From an uncultured Fibrobacterota bacterium (GTDB taxonomy: Bacteria > Fibrobacterota > Chitinivibrionia > Chitinivibrionales > FEN-1185), in NCBI GenBank assembly GCA_963753345.1, contig CAVWBU010000016.1, forward strand, positions 96,001 to 160,000: a stretch of DNA of 64,000 nucleotides. The letters run 5' to 3'. A model generated the notes under the pieces. It was not told the origin of the DNA, searched no databases, and saw only the letters and a list, made by a program, of their open reading frames with translations. Positions within the stretch are counted from its first letter, which is position 1. The number at the start of each line of letters is the position of its first letter. The translations under genes were made by a program, and so were the position numbers. Of the stretch, positions 1 through 9,111 are shown piece by piece.

Positions 1-227
1 GGGCGGTCATCCTTGACGGAGGCAGCATCTGGAGGGACATTGAACACCCCTTTGACGTCCACGAAAACGGCGAAGGCGTGGGGTTCGGGCTCAGAATCAT
101 GGCGCCAACGCTCCTCCGCTGTGCATGCTTCGACGTTGTCTGGCCATTGCAGGGAAGCGAAAATCCCCTGCACATCCGGTATTCCCTCACCCCCGCCTTG
201 TACTTGTATCTTGACATGTACTATTAA
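1..227 (+). CDS. Partial (5'-truncated) probable BamA/TamA-like outer-membrane beta-barrel protein, C-terminal end
   Basis: Frame 3 is open from the window edge to TAA at 225-227 and reads AVILDGGSIW...GEGVGFGLRI...YLYLDMYY. The D-G-x-x-W and GxGxGLR patterns and the aromatic C-terminus resemble Omp85-family barrels. Not in the ORF track. Confidence 0.5.
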   Translation, partial: AVILDGGSIWRDIEHPFDVHENGEGVGFGLRIMAPTLLRCACFDVVWPLQGSENPLHIRYSLTPALYLYLDMYY

Positions 228-288
228 AGTTGAGAAGTTGATGAGGGAATCCGTGTATGCGTTGATGCGTAAATGCGTGAATAAAGTG
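225..288 (+). repeat. Degenerate 8-bp-period tandem tract
   Basis: taaagttg/agaagttg/atgaggga/atccgtgt/atgcgttg/atgcgtaa/atgcgtga/ataaagtg. Confidence 0.5.
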
Positions 289-330
289 AGGGAGCGGCGA
301 GTTGATGGTTATAAAAGCGATACCAACGGT

Positions 331-359
331 TTGACATGCTGCTCCGGAAACTGTATTTT
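331..359 (+). promoter_or_regulatory. Sigma70-like promoter for the U32-GGR-OSC operon
   Basis: TTGACA (331-336), 17-bp spacer, TATTTT (354-359). GGAGG RBS at 374-378 precedes ATG 386. Confidence 0.6.
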
Positions 360-385
360 CTTGAGGCTCCTACGGAGGCTCCTTA

Positions 386-1684
386 ATGAAATTCTCGGTT
401 GCGTGCAACTTCGATGTCGCCCTGCTGGAAGGCCTGAGGCCCTATCCTGTCTACGAACTTTTCGGCAAGTTGACCGTCGATCACTTCGGCGGTGGGCGGC
501 CGTCATTCTATCTTCCGGCGGTGAATTCCAACAGGCTGAAGGCATACGTCGACGCCTGCCATTGCCAAAAAATCGCCTTCAATTATCTGCTCAACGCGTC
601 AACCATGGGCAACGTGGAATTTACGCGACAGGGGCAGCGAAAGTTTACCGAGATGCTCGAGTGGCTCGACGCCATGGGCGTCGACTCGATAACCGTATCG
701 AGCCTGTTCTTCCTCAAGATCATCAAGAAGCGGTGCCCGCGGATCAAGGTGCGAATAAGTTCTCACAGCTTCACGGACACGCCGCGGAAGATACGGTTCT
801 GGGCAGACTCGGGCGCGGACTACATCGTGATTTCCGAAGTGGGCATCTACCGTGAATTCAAGGTGCTCGAGGCCATGCGGAAAGCTGCGGGCGACGCGGT
901 CGAACTGCAGCTCATCGTCAACAACTGGTGCAGGCAGGACTGCGCCATTGCCGGCATTCACGCGGCCGCTCTCAACGCCGCCTCGCAGAAGAATTCGCGC
1001 GGATTCCCGCTTGACTACTGCTTCATCTACTGCAATTATCTTCGTTTCACCGAGCCGGTCAATTTTGTGCGCGCCAACTGGATACGCCCCGAAGACCTTC
1101 ATTATTACGAGGACATCGGATACGAGAATTTCAAAATCGTCGAGCGCAACACCCCCACCAAGATCCTTGTGGAGCGCGTCAAGGCCTACTACAACCGGCG
1201 CTACGACGGGAACCTTCTCGATATGCTCCAGAACTACGCCTACCCCCACGAGAAGTTCTCGGAACGCGAGCTGGAATACTTTTCGACCTGGCGCCTGATC
1301 AAATATTTCCTGAAGCCGGCGGCCGTAAACCTTTTCAAGTTCATAAAGGTGATCAAGATCGGAAAGACCGCCAGCATTCTGTATCCGCTGCATGGCCCGA
1401 ACCCCGTTTTCATTGACAACCGGAAGCTCGACGGTTTTCTGGAGCGGTTCCAAGCAAGCGGCTGCGCGTCCCGCGATTGCAACGAGTGCCGGCACTGCCA
1501 TTCGTGGGCCGACAAGGCGGTGGCCATCGACCCGCAGTGGAATTCCGCACTCAAGGAAGTTTTCGACGAACTCCTGGGCGAATTGCACTCCGGCGCGTTC
1601 TGGGAACCGTATTACAAGTCGGCCGTCGGGTTCACCAAGAAGATGTCCAAGAATCTGCTGCGGCGCGCCGTGCGTTCCGCGTGA
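386..1684 (+). CDS. Peptidase U32-family Fe-S protein (UbiU/UbiV/RlhA/TrhP superfamily; putative O2-independent hydroxylase)
   Basis: FNYLLNA, GVDSITV, VRISS, LQLIVNNWCRQDC...YCFIYC, WIRPEDLHYYEDIG..FKIVER match the U32 barrel. Additional C-terminal CASRDCNECRHC cluster. Confidence 0.85.
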   Translation: MKFSVACNFDVALLEGLRPYPVYELFGKLTVDHFGGGRPSFYLPAVNSNRLKAYVDACHCQKIAFNYLLNASTMGNVEFTRQGQRKFTEMLEWLDAMGVDSITVSSLFFLKIIKKRCPRIKVRISSHSFTDTPRKIRFWADSGADYIVISEVGIYREFKVLEAMRKAAGDAVELQLIVNNWCRQDCAIAGIHAAALNAASQKNSRGFPLDYCFIYCNYLRFTEPVNFVRANWIRPEDLHYYEDIGYENFKIVERNTPTKILVERVKAYYNRRYDGNLLDMLQNYAYPHEKFSERELEYFSTWRLIKYFLKPAAVNLFKFIKVIKIGKTASILYPLHGPNPVFIDNRKLDGFLERFQASGCASRDCNECRHCHSWADKAVAIDPQWNSALKEVFDELLGELHSGAFWEPYYKSAVGFTKKMSKNLLRRAVRSA

Positions 1685-2787
1685 TGAAAAGCGACATCCC
1701 GATTTGCGTCATAGGCGCCGGGCCGTGCGGCTCGACAGCGGCACGGTTGCTCTCGGAGAACGGCTGCCGATGTGTCAAGCTCCTTGAAAAGAAGTCCTGG
1801 CCAAGGCCCAAGACGTGCGCCGGCGGTATCGGCCCCCGCGCACGTGCGTGGCTTTCCCGGCAGGGTCTGCTCGCGGATCTCACGCCCATGGCAGCGAGAA
1901 TTTCGAGTCTCTATTTCACGGCGCCGTCGGGCAGGAGCGCCCGCCTCGTCTCCCCGGGCGAGATGGCGCTGGTGGTTCCCCGTGACCGTTTCGACGACTT
2001 CCTGGTACAGCGAGCCGTACATGCCGGCGTCGATTTCAGGCCGTCCGTGAAAGTTACGGCAATTACTCGCCGCAAGGACGGCGTCGTTCTTTCGACTTCA
2101 GAGGGCGACATCGAAGCCGCCGCGGTCGTTGTTGCCGCCGGTGCGATAAGCGGCATTCCTGGAGCGAGCCCTTCCGACGGCCGCACCCTCTCCTCGATCA
2201 TGGTGCGCTATGCCGATTTTCCGCACAATCCTTCCGAGATGGAGATGATCTTTCCCTCAATTATTTCGCCGTTCTATGCATGGCTTTTCCCCGAGCCGGG
2301 CGGCAGCGTTAACATTGGAATGATCACGCGTGGTACGTTAGGGGCCTCGTCGCTGCATGAGGTGTTCGACGGTATCCTCGAACGGTATTTCGGTTCCCGT
2401 ATTTCTAACGCCCGGCTGGTGGGCCATCGGACAGGCGCGCCGGTCCGATGCTCTGGCCGTGTTGGACCGATGGTTGACGGCCGCGTATTGTGGGCGGGCG
2501 AAAACGCGGGGCTCGTTAACGGCGCGACCTGCGAGGGAATTCCCTATGCCCTGGAAAGCGGTGAGCTTGCCGCTGCCGCGATCGCCAGGGCGGCACCCGG
2601 GAACCTTTTCGACCAGAAATCCCTATGCTCCTACCAACGCGCGGCGCAACGCCGATTTTCCATGCCGCTTGGTCTTGCCGCGGCCTTCAGGGCCTTTATT
2701 GGAAGCGCGGCGTTTCCTCCGGCCGCCGACCTGGGCACACTTCCCCTATTCCAACGCCTCTCGGCTTTCGTGCTTGCAAAGGTATAG
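1684..2787 (+). CDS. Geranylgeranyl reductase-family FAD-dependent oxidoreductase
   Basis: VIGAGPCG Rossmann motif, KTCAGG, R-x-x-FDDFL, YAWLFP, AGENAGLVN...EGIPYALESG. ATG 1684 overlaps the U32 stop (TGATG). Confidence 0.85.
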   Translation: MKSDIPICVIGAGPCGSTAARLLSENGCRCVKLLEKKSWPRPKTCAGGIGPRARAWLSRQGLLADLTPMAARISSLYFTAPSGRSARLVSPGEMALVVPRDRFDDFLVQRAVHAGVDFRPSVKVTAITRRKDGVVLSTSEGDIEAAAVVVAAGAISGIPGASPSDGRTLSSIMVRYADFPHNPSEMEMIFPSIISPFYAWLFPEPGGSVNIGMITRGTLGASSLHEVFDGILERYFGSRISNARLVGHRTGAPVRCSGRVGPMVDGRVLWAGENAGLVNGATCEGIPYALESGELAAAAIARAAPGNLFDQKSLCSYQRAAQRRFSMPLGLAAAFRAFIGSAAFPPAADLGTLPLFQRLSAFVLAKV

Positions 2788-2790
2788 AAC

Positions 2791-4737
2791 ATGCCTTCAA
2801 CCGTCGCAACGGCCCGCGCAGCAATCGATCGCTCCCTGCGCCGTTTGGCCGAAATTCAAACCAGCCGGGGAGCGTGGGAAGGCGAGGTGGTGTGGTCTCC
2901 CGTTGTGTTGGCTCAATACCTCATCACGCGCACCATTGTTGGAAAACCGGCCCCGGCCGACTTGCACGCGGAATACCTGCGCCACTTTACAGCATGGCAA
3001 ACGCCGGACGGCGGATGGGGCTTGCATGCCGAGTCGCCGGCGTACCTATTCGTCACCACGCTCGCCTATGTTGCGCTGCGCATGATCGGCGTTCCGTCGG
3101 ATGATGCTCGCCTCGTGAGGGCCAGAACTCTAGTCCGCGCGCTCGGTACGCCGCTTGCCATTCCAACATGGGGCAAGGTCTGGCTCGCATTCTGCAATTT
3201 GTATGAATATGGGGGCATATATCCTCTTCCGCCCGAGCTGTGGCTGTTCCCCCGATTTTTTCCCGTTCATCCATCGCGTTTGTACTGCCACACGCGGCTC
3301 ATCTACCTGGGCATGAGTTACCTCTACGCTAAGCGGTTTCGTCGTCCCGCCGACCCGCTCTGCTACGCATTGCGCGATGAGCTTTACGGCCGGCCCTATG
3401 AGAGCATCGACTTTCGCACAGAAGGAAGACGGCTGTCGCAGCGCGACCTTTTCAAGGCGCCGTCCCGATCGCTCGCCGCGGGTTATGCGGTTTTGCGATG
3501 TGTGGAGCGATGGAGCCCGGCTGCTCTACGGAAGCGCGCTTGTGCGGTGGCGCTCTCAAGAATCGAATACGAGCAGCGGTCGACCAACTATGCAGCGCTA
3601 TCCCCTGTCAACGGTCTGCTCAACATCCTCGCTCTGTATGCGGCCGACGCGCGCCACCCCGATCTCGAGCCGTCGCTCGACGGAATGGAGCATTGGAAGT
3701 GGAGCGATGAAAAGGAAGGCGTGCGGTACAACGGGGCACGCAGCCAGACATGGGACACCGCATTCGTGGTGCAGGCGGTCGCGGCGGCAAACGCGGACGA
3801 TTCTTTTTCTCCTGCGCTCTCCAGGGCCGGAGCCTTTCTTCGCGAAAATCAATTGCGCGACGAGATCCCTAATGGACCGGCCTTCTACCGTGATACGTGT
3901 GCAGGCGGCTGGTGCTTTTCCGATGCGCGTCACGGGTGGCCGGTAAGTGACACCACCGCCGAAGCGCTGTGCGCGGCCCTTGCGCTGCGCGAGCGCGGGT
4001 TGGAAACCCTCGACGAACCCGCTCTAAAAGACGCGGTGCGGTTCATCCTCTCCCGCCAGAATCCCGGGGGCGGCTGGGGATCATACGAACGAAAACGCGC
4101 CGGCCTTGCGCTCGAACGCATTAATCCCTCCGAGATGTTCGGCAATTGCATGGTTGAGCATTCGTACGTCGAATGCAGCGCATCGGCCCTCGATGCGCTC
4201 GCCCGGTTTCGACGGGCATTCCCCTCGACGGAATTGACAAAAGCGATTAGCGCTTCAATGAAACGCGGCGAGCGCTTCCTTGTAAGGGCGCAGATGTCCG
4301 ACGGATCGTGGCCTGGATTCTGGGGCCTCAATTACACGTATGGCACGTTCTTCGCCGTGCGCGGCCTCCTGGCCTGCGGACGTCAGTCGAGCGACGGCGC
4401 GATCCGCCGCGCCTGCGACTGGCTCATTGCGCACCAGAAGTCCGACGGCGGCTGGGGGGAGCACTGGACCAGTACTGTTCAGGGACGCTATATAGAGCAC
4501 CCGCAAAGTCAGGTGATAATGACCGCTTGGGCGCTTTTGACCTTGCTTCTCGCAAAGGACCCGCGTCGCGCCGCAATCAATCGCGGTGCCGACCTGCTTA
4601 TTGCGCGACAACTGCACAACGGCTCCTGGCCCAAGGAAGGCGTCGCCGGCGTCTTTTTCAACACCGCCATGCTTCATTACGAGCTATACCGCGATTATTT
4701 CCCTCTCTGGGCGCTCGGTCTTTTCGAAAGGGAATGA
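2791..4737 (+). CDS. osc: Oxidosqualene cyclase-type (lanosterol/cycloartenol synthase-like) triterpene cyclase
   Basis: Six QW repeats, GGWGLH, IPTWGKVWL, PPELW..HPSRLYCHTR, SQTWDTAF, catalytic HGWPVSDTTAEAL (DCTAE-like, not DXDD), NPSEMFG..YVEC, GVF...YRDYFPLWALG. Confidence 0.88.
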   Translation: MPSTVATARAAIDRSLRRLAEIQTSRGAWEGEVVWSPVVLAQYLITRTIVGKPAPADLHAEYLRHFTAWQTPDGGWGLHAESPAYLFVTTLAYVALRMIGVPSDDARLVRARTLVRALGTPLAIPTWGKVWLAFCNLYEYGGIYPLPPELWLFPRFFPVHPSRLYCHTRLIYLGMSYLYAKRFRRPADPLCYALRDELYGRPYESIDFRTEGRRLSQRDLFKAPSRSLAAGYAVLRCVERWSPAALRKRACAVALSRIEYEQRSTNYAALSPVNGLLNILALYAADARHPDLEPSLDGMEHWKWSDEKEGVRYNGARSQTWDTAFVVQAVAAANADDSFSPALSRAGAFLRENQLRDEIPNGPAFYRDTCAGGWCFSDARHGWPVSDTTAEALCAALALRERGLETLDEPALKDAVRFILSRQNPGGGWGSYERKRAGLALERINPSEMFGNCMVEHSYVECSASALDALARFRRAFPSTELTKAISASMKRGERFLVRAQMSDGSWPGFWGLNYTYGTFFAVRGLLACGRQSSDGAIRRACDWLIAHQKSDGGWGEHWTSTVQGRYIEHPQSQVIMTAWALLTLLLAKDPRRAAINRGADLLIARQLHNGSWPKEGVAGVFFNTAMLHYELYRDYFPLWALGLFERE

Positions 4738-4762
4738 AATGACAATGCGCTCGCTTTGGGAT

Positions 4763-5458
4763 TCACTCACCTACCGGCATCCGGTACCCGACGCCGGATT
4801 CGGTAATAAACAATTTCGGCCGGGCAGGATCGGTTTCCAACTTCTTGCGGAGCTGAGCGATGTATACGCGAAGGTACTGGGTTTCTTCTGCACGGAATGG
4901 CCCCCAGATTTCCTTCATGAGGTGCCGATGCGTCAGGACCTTTCCGGCATTCTTGACGAATTGGATTAAAAGAGAATATTCCGTGGCGGTCAGCTTTGCA
5001 GGCGAACCGCCGACCTTTACCGTCCGGTTGACAAGATCTACAAACAAATCACCGTTTTTGAATTCCTTGACCTCATCGGCGCCCTCGCGGCCGCGCCGCA
5101 GGGCGACCCGGAGCCTCGCAATCAGCTCGTTGACGCCGAACGGCTTGACGACATAATCGTCAGCGCCCGCATCGAGCGCCGCAACCTTGCCTTTTTCATC
5201 GTCCCGTACGGAAAGTATGATGACGGGCACCATGCTCCATTCCCGTACCTGCTTGAGAACGGCGCCGCCGTCCATGTCCGGCAGGCCGAGATCGAGAACA
5301 ATGGCATCCGGGCGGTCGGTTGCCGCTTTGTAAATCCCTTCCTTGGCGGTCGGCGCCTCAAGGATCTGGTATCCGTTTGCCTCAAGCGCGACCCTGAGAA
5401 AACGCCGGATCTGGAGTTCGTCATCAATGATGAGTATTTTCTTTCCTTCAGCCATCAC
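4763..5458 (-). CDS. kdpE: KDP operon response regulator (OmpR family)
   Basis: Receiver domain (IIDDE, LDLGLPD, GADDYVVKPF) plus winged helix (YLRVYIAQLRKKLE..P...TESGVGYR). Follows kdpD. Confidence 0.93.
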   Translation of the reverse strand: MMAEGKKILIIDDELQIRRFLRVALEANGYQILEAPTAKEGIYKAATDRPDAIVLDLGLPDMDGGAVLKQVREWSMVPVIILSVRDDEKGKVAALDAGADDYVVKPFGVNELIARLRVALRRGREGADEVKEFKNGDLFVDLVNRTVKVGGSPAKLTATEYSLLIQFVKNAGKVLTHRHLMKEIWGPFRAEETQYLRVYIAQLRKKLETDPARPKLFITESGVGYRMPVGE

Positions 5459-8163
5459 GGCGCCTCTTCCGCTGAGAGCGGTTTGTGCTCGACGGGCAGC
5501 CGGATCAGGAACTGCGCCCCTTTGCCCGGCCGGTTCGCGGCCTCGACCGACCCGCCGTGCAATTCGACGAATCCTTTGACAATAGATAATCCGAGCCCAG
5601 TGCCGCCGGCCCTGGTGCCCGGGACCCGGAAGAATTTGTCGAAAATCCGGTGAATCGATTCTTCCGGCAGGCCCGGGCCTTCATCTTCAATGGCAAACAC
5701 CAGCGTCCCGGAGTCGTAAAAAGCTCTCATGTGGATCGATGTCCCCGGCTGCGTGTACTGCGCGGCATTAAGCACGATGTTGGAAAGAACCTGTTCCATG
5801 ATAATGCCGTCGAGTTTTACGAGCGGCACATCATCGGCAACCGTCACGCGAACCGTGTGCCCTGCGAGCTCCTCGGCAAGGTCGCCCAGGACCGCATTGA
5901 TGATGTCATGAACATCGCACCAATCCTTCGCAATCGTCAATCCGCCGGATTCGATCCGGGTCATGTCGAGCAGGTTTTCAACGAGCCTGTTCAATCGCGA
6001 AGAGGCAACCCTGATGTCTCCGACAAGAACGTTGCGCGATCGTTCGTCTTGGGCGACCGCAGCCTCCAGGAGGCTGCTTGACGCACCGGTAATTGCGGCA
6101 AGAGGAGTGCGCAATTCGTGGGAAATCGAATTGAGCAGGGTCTTGTTCAGACGTTCGGATTCCTCAAGCAGCCTCGTTTTTGCAGCCTGTTCCCTAAGAA
6201 CCGCCCGGTCCAGTGCGAAGGCCCACTGGTGCAGGAACATCATCAACAGGCCCTCCTGCTCTACGGGCATTTCCTTTGCGCCGGACGAAACAAGTCCGAC
6301 AACGCCCCTGCACGCCCCGTGCATCAGCAACGGATAGTATGCAGCCGTAGCGAACGGAAGGGTCGCCATGGCGTGCCCGGCCGGTTTCTTATTGGAAAAG
6401 ACCCATTTTGCGACACTCCACTCCTTGTCGTTGTCCGGGGCGAACGTACTCAAGTGATGCGGTTTTCGTCCCATCGATTCGGCCGTTTCGGGAAGAAACA
6501 ACGCGGCGCGCGCGCCAAAAACCGATGTCATGTTCTCCATGCCCGCCCGTGCAATGTCGTCGGTCGTTTCGGCGGCCGCGAGCTCTTTGACAAATGAATA
6601 AAGCGCGGCGGTGAGACGCTCGCGGCGCCGGACGACCGTCTCCTTGGTCCGTACCCGTGAGGTGAGCGTGCCGCTCACGAGCGCAACAATAAAATAGAGC
6701 GACACCAACAGAACATCGGACGCATGCGAAATCGAAAACGTGAAGACCGGAGGGATAAAGAAGAAATCCCAGAAAACCGCGCTTAAGCCCGCGGCAGCGA
6801 AAAGCGGTCCAAGTCCGGCGATAAGCGAAAGAAGCGAAATAATAAAGAGGAGAAACATGCCGACCGACCGGTAATCGATGTACGGTGAGGCCAGAAAACA
6901 GGCTGCGGTGGCGACGCAAACGGCAAGACAGGAGACCACATAGTCGCGCAACGGGGACGCGATCCCCGAAAGCATACCCAACCGGAAGGGCCTTTTCGGC
7001 GGAGCTCCGGCATCGCTCTTTACAACGTAGATATCGATCGCTCCGCTATCACGGATAAGTTTATTGACCAGGGACCCGCCATGCACAAGGTCGAGCACGG
7101 GGTTTGGCATCGATTTACCAATGACAATTTGCGTTGCATTGTTCTGGCGCGCGGCCCTCAGAAGGGCCCGCGCAATATCGTCGTCCGCGGTGGTGACCAG
7201 GGTCGCGCCGAGTTCCTGGGCGAGTTCGATGTTTTTCTTGAGTCGCTTTTCAGCCGTTGCGGACAGCGGCCGCGATGCCTGCACGTACACCGCAGTCCAC
7301 GGCGCCTCCATGGTGGCGGCGATGCGACGCGTCCATCGGATGAGCTGTTCGGAATACGGGCTGGGCCCGATGGCCACCATGAGCCTCTCCTTGGTTTTCC
7401 ATGGCCCGCTGATCCGGTTTTCCTCCATGTAATCCTTGAGTTGGAGGTTTACCCGGTCCGCGGTCTTGCGAAGCGCGATCTCCCGGAGCGCGGTGAGATT
7501 GCCTTTCTGGAAGAAATGCTGTGCCGCGGCTTCGGAACGCTCCGCGGTATATACTTTGCCTTCCCTGAGGCGGGCCAAAAGGTCGTCCGGCGGCAGGTCG
7601 ACAAGCTCGATTTCATCCGCCATGTCAAGAACACTGTCGGGCACCGTCTCGCGAACCGTGACACCGGTGATCTGGCGGACCGAGTCCACAAGACTTTCCA
7701 CATGCTGCACATTGAGGGTGGTGAGGACATTTATCCCATTGTCAAGCAATTCGAGCGTGTCCTGATATCTCTTGGTGTGGCGCATGCCTTCGGCATTGGT
7801 ATGCGCAAGCTCGTCGACAAGCACATACGCCGGCCTTGCGGACAGTACTGCGTCCAGGTCCAGGTCCGAAAGTCCTTTACCTTTGTAGGTTGTCTGCAAG
7901 CGTGGAAAAACGTTCAGTCCTGAGAGCAGGGCTTCAGTTTCTTCCCGGCCATGGGTCTCGACAATCCCGACGCAAACAGAAATGCCTCGTGCCTTTAAAG
8001 CCTGCGCGGCCTTGAGCATGGCATAGGTCTTTCCCACGCCGGCGCACATGCCGAAGAAGACTTTCAGCGTGCCCCGCAGTTTCGCCTGTTCGCTTTTTTG
8101 CATGGAAGCGAGCAGAACATCGGGATTTGGTCGATCAGGTCCGCTCATTTTTTGCAGATCCAT
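5455..8163 (-). CDS. kdpD: Osmosensitive K+ sensor histidine kinase
   Basis: KdpD N-terminal domain (GMCAGVGKTYAML, VDELAHTN), Usp domain, 4 TM segments, GAF, SHELRTPL and GTGLGL. Confidence 0.95.
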   Translation of the reverse strand: MDLQKMSGPDRPNPDVLLASMQKSEQAKLRGTLKVFFGMCAGVGKTYAMLKAAQALKARGISVCVGIVETHGREETEALLSGLNVFPRLQTTYKGKGLSDLDLDAVLSARPAYVLVDELAHTNAEGMRHTKRYQDTLELLDNGINVLTTLNVQHVESLVDSVRQITGVTVRETVPDSVLDMADEIELVDLPPDDLLARLREGKVYTAERSEAAAQHFFQKGNLTALREIALRKTADRVNLQLKDYMEENRISGPWKTKERLMVAIGPSPYSEQLIRWTRRIAATMEAPWTAVYVQASRPLSATAEKRLKKNIELAQELGATLVTTADDDIARALLRAARQNNATQIVIGKSMPNPVLDLVHGGSLVNKLIRDSGAIDIYVVKSDAGAPPKRPFRLGMLSGIASPLRDYVVSCLAVCVATAACFLASPYIDYRSVGMFLLFIISLLSLIAGLGPLFAAAGLSAVFWDFFFIPPVFTFSISHASDVLLVSLYFIVALVSGTLTSRVRTKETVVRRRERLTAALYSFVKELAAAETTDDIARAGMENMTSVFGARAALFLPETAESMGRKPHHLSTFAPDNDKEWSVAKWVFSNKKPAGHAMATLPFATAAYYPLLMHGACRGVVGLVSSGAKEMPVEQEGLLMMFLHQWAFALDRAVLREQAAKTRLLEESERLNKTLLNSISHELRTPLAAITGASSSLLEAAVAQDERSRNVLVGDIRVASSRLNRLVENLLDMTRIESGGLTIAKDWCDVHDIINAVLGDLAEELAGHTVRVTVADDVPLVKLDGIIMEQVLSNIVLNAAQYTQPGTSIHMRAFYDSGTLVFAIEDEGPGLPEESIHRIFDKFFRVPGTRAGGTGLGLSIVKGFVELHGGSVEAANRPGKGAQFLIRLPVEHKPLSAEEAP

Positions 8164-8504
8164 TGCGACATGATAATGATGCAGGCGATTGATCCTTTTT
8201 TTGCGATATCACCCGCATTAATTTCCCCGCTCAGTATCTTTCCTGATAAATAGTATCTTCCACCGAACGAAACCACTTCAATTCTTCCGGCTTCCTCCAA
8301 TTCGCAGGATTGTCCCGACCGAAATACGGTAAGGGTGTCGTGAATGGAAATTTCCTTTCTGATTTCTTGAGTGCCGCTCTGAAATAAGTGAACAACGCTG
8401 CCAAGGGGAAGATACCCGCTTTCCGCAAAATAGGACGTTGCGGCAATAGAGAAGAAAACGGCAAGAACCAATAGCATTACTATTGCTGACAAAATCTTTT
8501 TCAT
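8145..8504 (-). CDS. Hypothetical protein with N-terminal signal/TM segment, between kdpC and kdpD
   Basis: AGGAGG-type RBS before ATG 8504. N-terminus MKKILSAIVMLLVLAVFFSIAA is hydrophobic. Stop overlaps the kdpD start region. Confidence 0.55.
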   Translation of the reverse strand: MKKILSAIVMLLVLAVFFSIAATSYFAESGYLPLGSVVHLFQSGTQEIRKEISIHDTLTVFRSGQSCELEEAGRIEVVSFGGRYYLSGKILSGEINAGDIAKKGSIACIIIMSQWICKK

Positions 8505-8514
8505 AGCCACCCTC

Positions 8515-9111
8515 CTACCGGTGATGTGCTACACTGTCTACCATACGGTTCAGCCTGAGAACATTGACCCGCGGCATTCCCAATATTCCCAACTGGGGTT
8601 GTTCAATCGCTCTTTCGACCATTGCCGAAAGAGCCTCTTTCTGCAGCAGGGTCATGTGCCGCTGCTCTGCGACTCTGTTTATCTGCAAACGTGCGGCTTC
8701 GGGGCTGCTATGAGGATCCAATCCGCTGGCCGAAGAAAAGAGCATGTCGGGCGGCACGGCGGAATCCAACGCAATGCCGAACGTGTTCCGGAATTCTTTG
8801 CGCCGCGCCGCAACCGAATCTCTAAGCTGGAGACTTACCGAGCCCAGGTTGCTGGCGCCAGAAGGAAGCGGATCATACGAAATCGATGACGGACGGGATC
8901 TGAAGTATTTGGGTGTTGCAAAGGTCTGTCCAAGCAATTCCGATCCGACAATCTTTTCCCCAGCGGTAACAAGGCTCCCATTTGCCCGGAACGGAAAAAG
9001 ACATTGGGCAAGAGCCGTAACCGTCACCGTGTAGAGCACACCGCACGCCACGGTAAAAACAACATACATCCGTACCGCACCAATCAGATTTTTCATCATG
9101 CTTCCTGTCAT
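8515..9111 (-). CDS. kdpC: K+-transporting ATPase subunit C (true start may be 9099 or 9096)
   Basis: [43 protein letters not shown]. Confidence 0.95.

Follow-up and report, generated by a model that had tools for sequence, protein, structure and literature searches.

How could a bacterium supply an oxidosqualene cyclase (OSC) with its oxygenated substrate when no O2-dependent squalene epoxidase (SE) is encoded beside it? The question is raised by a three-gene operon at positions 331-4737 of a 64,000-nucleotide stretch of DNA from an uncultured Fibrobacterota bacterium (assembly GCA_963753345.1, contig CAVWBU010000016.1, positions 96,001 to 160,000)—hereafter the window—in which a divergent U32-like protein and a flavoprotein of the geranylgeranyl reductase (GGR) family precede the cyclase. 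We use the name U32L for the first of these proteins and its close relatives. From gene content and context, we argue that U32L very probably belongs to the sterol pathway, and that it may be an O2-independent, probably prephenate-dependent enzyme supplying the oxygenated cyclase substrate, a reading to which we assign a probability of about 0.5. The features of the operon are as follows:

331-359, + strand: candidate sigma-70-like promoter by consensus match, TTGACA (331-336), 17 nt, TATTTT (354-359)
374-378, + strand: GGAGG ribosome-binding site, read from the sequence, 7 nt before the gene 1 ATG
386-1684, + strand: gene 1, U32L, 432 aa, divergent U32-like predicted Fe-S TIM-barrel protein (PF01136, predicted fold, conserved cysteines)
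1684-2787, + strand: gene 2, GGR-family flavoprotein, 367 aa (TIGR02032)
2791-4737, + strand: gene 3, OSC, 648 aa (TIGR03463/TIGR01787, comparison with 1w6k)
4763-5458, - strand: kdpE, convergent with the operon (best match KdpE, 272.7 bits)

The initial annotation described three tightly coupled genes behind a TTGACA-17-TATTTT promoter, closed by a convergent kdpE and with no squalene epoxidase among them, and all of these sequence statements were borne out on re-reading. The TGA of gene 1 (1682-1684) overlaps the ATG of gene 2 (1684) by one base, giving 'TGATG'; the TAG of gene 2 (2785-2787) is followed after a 3-bp gap by the ATG of gene 3 (2791); and no match to PF08491, the SE family, lies in the operon. 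The promoter candidate agrees with the consensus at 10 of 12 positions, which makes it the joint best of six promoter-like sites found by a consensus scan of positions 1-5600 (1.9 +/- 1.4 in shuffles).

The linkage of U32L to OSC recurs well outside this host. A scan of one genome per species confirmed 92 relatives, and the best 80 were kept; these are 55-87% identical, all come from metagenome-assembled genomes (MAGs), and are distributed over Fibrobacterota, Spirochaetota, Myxococcota, Bacteroidota, and Pseudomonadota. OSC lies within the locus in 40 of the 80, while the other 40 genomes comprise 35 with an OSC-level match elsewhere, four with none, and one with only a 104-bit match—75 of the 80 U32L genomes thus carry OSC. 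Synteny of the two genes is common to Fibrobacterota, Spirochaetota, and Myxococcota, and because the order recurs in other phyla it is far beyond chance; the initial annotation had suggested looking for U32-OSC synteny in other genomes, and there it was found. With neighboring open reading frames (ORFs) grouped by clustering at 75% mutual coverage, the gene order is U32L-GGR-OSC in Fibrobacterota and U32L-OSC-DXS-prenyl synthase-IDI2-(DUF116)-DXR in Spirochaetota. Myxococcota have two types: in one, hpnE and two squalene synthase (SQS) genes, hpnE-SQS-SQS, are divergent from prenyl synthase-CM/DAHPS-U32L-(GGR)-OSC, where CM/DAHPS is a chorismate mutase/DAHP synthase fusion; in the other, a sigma-54 activator and a histidine kinase lie upstream, and a thiolase and an HMG-CoA-synthase-like gene downstream. 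Further neighbors of U32L are two SQS_PSY genes with an amine oxidase (an hpnCDE-like set), prenyl synthase, DXS, DXR, and IDI2; hpnCDE-like squalene synthesis genes stand beside U32L in 12 Myxococcota loci.

A survey of 401 evenly drawn Myxococcota genomes supports the association. OSC was found in 49 and high-scoring U32L in 17, of which 14 are OSC-positive; U32L is thus present in 14/49 OSC-positive versus 3/352 OSC-negative genomes (Fisher p = 1.4e-11, a value that kinship inflates). Lower-scoring paralogues (184-387 bits) alone were found in six more genomes, all of them OSC-negative. An SE match occurs in 39 of the 49 OSC-positive genomes, and U32L is enriched where SE is missing—7 of the 10 genomes without SE carry it, as against 7 of the 39 with SE (Fisher p = 0.003, likewise inflated by kinship). 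Three OSC-positive genomes lack both U32L and SE: one is a fragment at a contig end, one has a divergent cyclase of 458 bits, and one is a bin of 3.1 Mb. Among 201 genomes of the host phylum, three have OSC, all of the host genus, and the cassette was therefore recently acquired there; we interpret the operon as a sterol cassette obtained by horizontal transfer.

A quick maximum-likelihood tree (IQ-TREE with SH-aLRT; L031, L051, L057, L071, and L072 not in the tree) divides U32L, at 100% SH-aLRT support, into clade A, with 58 rows that include the window, and clade B, with 18 rows of about 485-510 aa and a C-terminal extension. Of the 45 clade-A loci whose downstream flank extends for 2.5 kb or more, 32 have OSC directly after U32L in the same orientation, as do 7 more with shorter flanks; for these counts L071 was placed by hand in clade B, and L031, L051, L057, and L072 in clade A. 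No SE match was found in the genomes behind 46 of the 58 clade-A rows. By locus, SE matches occur in 9 of the 50 genomes of L002-L051 and in 24 of the 30 of L052-L081. A canonical squalene epoxidase elsewhere in the host would have spoken against the initial annotation; no PF08491 match was found in the host genome (4.5 Mb, 94% complete). As for AltSQE, which we take to be a member of the FA_hydroxylase family, that family is missing from 28 of the 45 SE-less U32L genomes, the host included, and an AltSQE-type epoxidase is ruled out there as the missing enzyme; the other 17 have the family, and in these it may be the missing enzyme.

Judged by its sequence, gene 3 is a true oxidosqualene cyclase. 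It scores 529.5 bits against the general squalene/oxidosqualene cyclase model TIGR01787, above the cut-off of 322.7, and 814 bits against TIGR03463 (osq_cycl), below the cut-off of 851; the latter is strict, because only two OSC matches across three surveys reach it (G036 at 859.1 and G211 at 912.6). The match to human lanosterol synthase, 1w6k, is 489.5 bits versus 165.9 bits to the squalene-hopene cyclase (SHC) 1gsz. The OSC-type motifs reported by the initial annotation, in place of the DxDD of SHC, were recovered: VSDTTAE (residue 385, containing the catalytic Asp), YCHTR (165), YVEC (459), and NPSEMFG, with DxDD not found in gene 3. Alignment with 1w6k pairs CHTRLIY, GSYERKR, and YVECSAS of gene 3 with human stretches that presumably hold H232, Y503, and C533; the His and Tyr at those columns, which we take to serve deprotonation in lanosterol synthase, are retained in U32L-adjacent OSCs. 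These OSCs show the epoxide-type D-C-T-A-E motif, the same as SE-adjacent OSCs, and none has DxDD (L104, L105, L108, and L109, wrong-strand ORFs among ten 'far' OSC rows, were left out of the comparison); only in the host genus does Thr replace the Cys after the catalytic Asp. Gene 3 is the sole cyclase of the host genome and would cyclize 2,3-oxidosqualene to a tetracyclic protosterol. Epoxy-substrate cyclases reportedly cannot use alkenyl substrates (PMC12324236). In one Leptospirales MAG (L039), U32L stands between two cyclases, with OSC downstream and an SHC-type enzyme with D-T-D-D-T-A-E on the other side.

Gene 1 is a distant member of the U32 group. It matches PF01136 (Peptidase_U32) at 38.3 bits, above the cut-off of 22.4, and the match is limited to residues 86-150, corresponding to profile positions 3-67 of 233. 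An AF2 model built with 46 relatives as input (pLDDT 83.3, pTM 0.84) has as its best Foldseek match in the PDB the U32 peptidase Mk0906, 5d88 (E 3.5e-8, TM 0.70 on target), which the U32L family profile also finds (E 6e-7); as modeled, the U32L fold is a U32-type TIM barrel. Across 77 aligned U32L ORFs—76 from other loci and the window's own—C182, C186, and C216 are invariant and C212 is kept in 71, while a second group, C360, C365, C368, and C371, is kept in 76. The cysteines of the first group directly follow a strand equivalent to the one that precedes CX6CX15CX3C in the host's own TrhP-like U32 protein. That protein (contig C16:85397-86632, - strand, 411 aa, 274 bits to the TrhP model) is canonical, with its gene about 10 kb before the window start, and by sequence the host genome carries both a standard and a sterol-linked type of U32 protein. 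Of the 2057 representatives that an exhaustive U32L profile search returned at E <= 1e-3, 616 reach E <= 1e-30; because only three exceed 470 bits, U32L proper is one tight subfamily in a broad, uncharacterized family. A search for longer proteins that would represent fused forms gave none at E <= 1e-20, which is weak evidence. Lower-scoring paralogues (31-38% identity) in Myxococcota without OSC have between one and four B12-binding radical SAM genes as neighbors; they include loci L113-L119 (genomes G337, G155, G352, G307, G447, and G470) and L061:6533-7996.

The strongest independent hint on mechanism, read from gene neighborhoods, is a link to prephenate. A CM/DAHPS fusion adjoins U32L in 34 of the 80 loci, in two independent domain orders: in 30 loci U32L is directly preceded, in the same orientation, by a CM_2+DAHP-synthase fusion (NF009239, 503 bits), and in four Bacteroidota loci a fusion with the opposite order, DAHP synthase followed by chorismate mutase, lies directly downstream. 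Both clades share the linkage (20 of 57 clade-A and 11 of 18 clade-B loci), as do three loci outside the tree. According to PMC10990095 and PMC5727448, prephenate is the oxygen donor for UbiU/UbiV-dependent hydroxylation and is needed by TrhP and RlhA as well. Prephenate is a plausible oxygen donor for U32L.

We propose the following scheme, in which we infer squalene as the substrate, the epoxide as the product, prephenate as the donor, and independence of O2. U32L would turn squalene into an oxygenated cyclase substrate, 2,3-oxidosqualene or an equivalent, and so stand in for the O2-dependent squalene monooxygenase; prephenate would most likely donate the oxygen, as with UbiU/UbiV, TrhP, and RlhA. 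Gene 3 would then cyclize this substrate, giving a lanosterol-, cycloartenol-, or parkeol-type protosterol, and gene 2 would probably saturate a side-chain double bond. The suggestion of the initial annotation, a U32 protein in place of the epoxidase that perhaps uses prephenate, draws strong but indirect support from conserved synteny, enrichment in genomes without SE, and adjacency to CM/DAHPS.

The assignment of gene 2 departs from the initial annotation, which had cast the flavoprotein as a possible oxygenation partner. Gene 2 scores 166.5 bits against the geranylgeranyl reductase family model TIGR02032 (GG-red-SF; cut-off 158.8), has the MenJ model among its best matches (68 bits), and matches FAD_binding_3 (E 7e-14), which places it in the same flavoprotein superfamily as SE; its matches to 10 Pfam families do not include the SE domain PF08491. 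Homologues occur in 12 of the 80 U32L loci and are missing from most U32L-OSC loci. In the Myxococcota survey, homologues at E <= 1e-25 were found in 18 of the 49 OSC-positive genomes, 11 of the 18 being without U32L. In G453 and G428, SQS, SE, and OSC are all found a few kb or less from the homologue, in a cluster that has no U32L. In 10.1101/2024.11.01.621555, the GGR homologue Bsr is reported to reduce the C-24 double bond of sterols in myxobacteria, to cluster with MenJ, and to co-localize with sterol genes. Because its homologues sit in SQS-SE-OSC clusters without U32L, and given the Bsr precedent, gene 2 is probably a sterol side-chain reductase of the C-24, Bsr-like type, and a role in oxygenation is not supported. 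Like Bsr, whose characterized form comes from Sandaracinus amylolyticus, it is a GGR-family protein encoded among sterol genes, and the MenJ model ranks high among its matches; its identity to the homologues detected in Myxococcota is only 28-42%, and none of the names of its homologues is linked to Bsr.

Several characterized systems bear comparison with U32L. UbiU and UbiV are described in PMC10990095 as O2-independent ubiquinone hydroxylases with a [4Fe-4S] cluster; U32L shares with them PF01136 and, as modeled, the U32-type TIM-barrel fold, it has four conserved cysteines at the corresponding place, and a polyprenyl-lipid substrate and a prephenate link would be common to both if our proposal for U32L is right. 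U32L differs in having no UbiU or UbiV NCBIfam match, in its cysteine spacing (CX3CX25CX3C as against CX6CX15CX3-4C), in an extra C-terminal CX4CX2CX2C motif, in being encoded by one gene where UbiU and UbiV form a pair, in a proposed substrate that is an alkene rather than an aromatic ring, and in its sterol cyclase context. TrhP and RlhA likewise carry out Fe-S-dependent, O2-independent, prephenate-requiring hydroxylation (PMC5727448 and PMC10990095); their substrate is RNA (tRNA and rRNA), and U32L aligns to the host TrhP-like protein over only about 118 columns.

A further comparison is with the epoxidases themselves. The reaction proposed for U32L, squalene to 2,3-oxidosqualene, is identical to that of squalene monooxygenase (SE/Erg1/Smo) and of AltSQE. 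AltSQE is a di-iron membrane enzyme and SE a flavoprotein; both need O2, and neither has sequence or fold kinship to the Fe-S TIM barrel predicted for U32L. Smo adjoins OSC in many Myxococcota, as stated in 10.1101/2024.11.01.621555, and U32L holds the same genomic position. Bacterial SQS-Smo-OSC clusters (Myxococcota, Bacteroidota, Methylococcales, Gemmata) have the same OSC family and isoprenoid neighbors; in the host genome, neither Smo nor SQS was found and U32L is in the neighboring position. We found no literature linking U32 proteins or prephenate to sterol or oxidosqualene synthesis in the main text of CC-licensed PMC articles and bioRxiv preprints.

A number of observations, set out in this paragraph and the next two, weigh against U32L as an O2-independent epoxidase. 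The first concern the protein itself and its supposed donor. Gene 1 matches no NCBIfam family at E <= 0.01, including the TrhP, UbiU, UbiV, and PRK15447 models. Its CX3CX25CX3C spacing differs from the CX6CX15CX3C of the host TrhP-like protein—CX6CX15CX3-4C being what we take to be the literature form of the U32 [4Fe-4S] four-cysteine motif—and hhalign of the two gives a probability of 3.9% over 118 columns, so the kinship is remote. To our knowledge, all characterized U32 hydroxylations take place on aromatic or heteroaromatic rings, not on alkenes. The window operon has no CM/DAHPS neighbor, and a search of the host genome gave no chorismate mutase; prephenate dehydratase is present there.

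The second group concerns the source of squalene and the physiology of the host. Family search, tblastn, and a custom hidden Markov model run without filters all failed to find an SQS_PSY squalene synthase in the host, and the other three Fibrobacterota U32L genomes likewise gave none (0/4 overall). Of the nine Spirochaetota-clade U32L genomes only one, L039, has SQS_PSY, versus 45 of the 49 OSC-positive Myxococcota; the Fibrobacterota and Spirochaetota genomes examined were the host and those of L002-L005, L010, L011, L018, L019, L023, L024, L027, and L039. The host has FPP (farnesyl diphosphate) synthase, DXS, and DXR. With neither an SQS_PSY member nor a chorismate mutase found, the host genome, as read, encodes an incomplete pathway. 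Nor is the host evidently an anaerobe: a check for terminal oxidases found a caa3-type cytochrome c oxidase (NCBIfam; CtaD 636 bits, CoxB beside it, subunit IV-like):

Contig C40 (L099:6019-9490), - strand: caa3 oxidase locus (CtaD, CoxB, subunit IV-like)

The host and two congeners each have a full-length COX1 match of about 475 bits, and because the congeners hold a match of the same score the oxidase is not contamination. No cytochrome bd was found in the host genome. Among the 11 SE-less U32L genomes checked, 7 have a heme-copper oxidase of some kind; that the hosts are anaerobes is not established. Two studies have peat and freshwater-sediment metagenomes that contain near-identical DNA, and no RNA data set is listed as holding the operon. 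In two Spirochaetota loci (L018:3953-6931 and L019:3980-7042), genes for NrdD, an anaerobic ribonucleotide reductase, and for its radical SAM activase (nrdD-nrdG) lie just upstream of a TetR-U32L-OSC cluster.

The third group is the distribution of SE. Twelve of the 58 clade-A rows also have an SE match, some a few kb away (L046, L051), and in clade B, SE is present in all 18 rows. Many clade-B genomes have SE adjoining OSC, one clade-B locus (L058) unites U32L, SE, and OSC in one cluster, and OSC is never directly downstream of clade-B U32L (0 of 14 loci with sufficient flank). Since clade B always occurs with SE, U32L is not simply a replacement for it. UbiU/UbiV reportedly coexist with UbiI/H/F (PMC10990095), and clade-B U32L likewise coexists with an O2-dependent flavin enzyme; by analogy, a dual O2-dependent and O2-independent arrangement as in ubiquinone synthesis would fit clade B, and a different step would fit as well.

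Such a different step could follow cyclization: U32L would oxidize the sterol—a methyl on the demethylation route, the ring, or the side chain—without O2, and the epoxide would come from elsewhere. The regular coexistence with SE in clade B, within one cluster at L058, is what would be expected, and of the several O2-dependent steps that sterol maturation includes, some could on general grounds be taken over by an anaerobic enzyme. Post-cyclization oxidation leaves epoxidation unexplained, however, in the 46 clade-A rows without SE. OSC is the only sterol-specific gene in many clusters, for example in the Spirochaetota order given above, and the host genome has no P450. Clade B, moreover, is found in Archangiaceae and Myxococcaceae MAGs, and cultured Myxococcaceae, as that family is treated in 10.1101/2024.11.01.621555, reportedly make no further change to cycloartenol. 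We regard this explanation as unlikely.

Squalene itself might alternatively be the substrate of the cyclase, with U32L then adding a 3-hydroxyl or another oxygen, or with oxygen-free products and U32L otherwise employed. Genomes without SE, 28 of 45 of them also without an FA_hydroxylase member, are compatible with this, as is the Thr that follows the catalytic Asp in the Fibrobacterota OSC (VSDTTAE). U32L-adjacent OSCs otherwise share D-C-T-A-E with SE-adjacent OSCs, however, with no DxDD among them, and the His and Tyr columns that we take to serve deprotonation are unchanged. The reported failure of epoxy-substrate cyclases on alkenyl substrates (PMC12324236) also argues against it, and we consider direct use of squalene quite unlikely.

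It is very unlikely, in our view, that U32L has a housekeeping, regulatory, or peptidase function and simply travels with isoprenoid clusters while the flavoprotein or some O2-dependent enzyme makes the epoxide. Public annotation does label U32L as 'U32 family peptidase' or 'collagenase-like PrtC', and gene 2 does belong to the flavoprotein superfamily of SE. U32L is nevertheless 55-87% identical across phyla with eight near-invariant cysteines, homologues of gene 2 occur in few of the loci and also in clusters that already have SE, and the co-occurrence statistics for U32L, OSC, and SE argue against a mere passenger. Least likely of all is a place for U32L further upstream, in a squalene-synthase-independent C30 route from prenyl diphosphates that possibly gives an oxygenated product: the scarcity of SQS_PSY in Fibrobacterota and the Spirochaetota clade, and a Spirochaetota operon with prenyl synthase and methylerythritol phosphate pathway genes and no SQS, would suit it, but U32L adjoins hpnCDE-like genes in 12 Myxococcota loci and is therefore not redundant with squalene synthesis genes, such chemistry is without precedent in a U32-type fold, and the chorismate mutase linkage points to oxygen transfer.

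Several further features of U32L loci and of the window may be recorded. A DUF116 gene occurs in 16 of the 80 loci, including all nine Spirochaetota-clade loci (examples are L005:7080-7958, L023:7493-8035, L014:6674-8275, and L030:14317-15144), and the host has a copy on contig C46:28773-29648 (- strand). PMC5898192 describes DUF116 as Cys-rich and anchored in the membrane, with a CxxCxxC motif like that of ferredoxins, and it could serve as an electron acceptor; we do not claim it as a pathway-specific partner, because it is found in 74 of 201 host-phylum genomes regardless of OSC. DUF3419 recurs in 12 U32L loci. Recurrent ORF families near U32L that have no Pfam or NCBIfam match are u11 (437 aa), u7 (156 aa), u22 (367 aa), u29 (599 aa), u30 (339 aa), u38 (263 aa), and u40 (327 aa), seen in Myxococcota loci L012, L015, L016, L025, L030, and others; some may be antisense shadows in G+C-rich DNA. 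In the window itself, the minus-strand genes at 4763-9111 (kdpE, kdpD, and kdpC, with a small ORF at 8145-8510 between kdpD and kdpC) form an ordinary potassium-uptake regulon with no evident connection to the U32L operon, and the upstream neighbor of the operon, in the contig sequence preceding the window, encodes a weakly BamA-like secreted protein.

What would it mean if U32L is what we propose? A 2025 preprint on cyclase evolution (PMC12324236) holds that sterol synthesis is strictly O2-dependent from the first committed step, and it builds its evolutionary scenarios on this view; steranes and protosteroids are used as markers of oxygen and of eukaryotes on the same premise. Tentatively, and at a little under even odds, we suggest that U32L is an O2-independent, prephenate-dependent squalene epoxidase or equivalent activator through which several phyla may make protosterols without O2, by way of an unknown C30 route where SQS_PSY is missing. 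If so, the first committed step of sterol synthesis would be no reliable marker of oxygen, and protosteroid fossils would require neither O2 nor eukaryotes. Prephenate-dependent oxygen transfer would reach from aromatic rings to lipid alkenes, and the OSC genes of genomes without any epoxidase would be accounted for. The family would also offer a testable gene for anoxic sterol production in the bacteria of peat, sediment, and groundwater.

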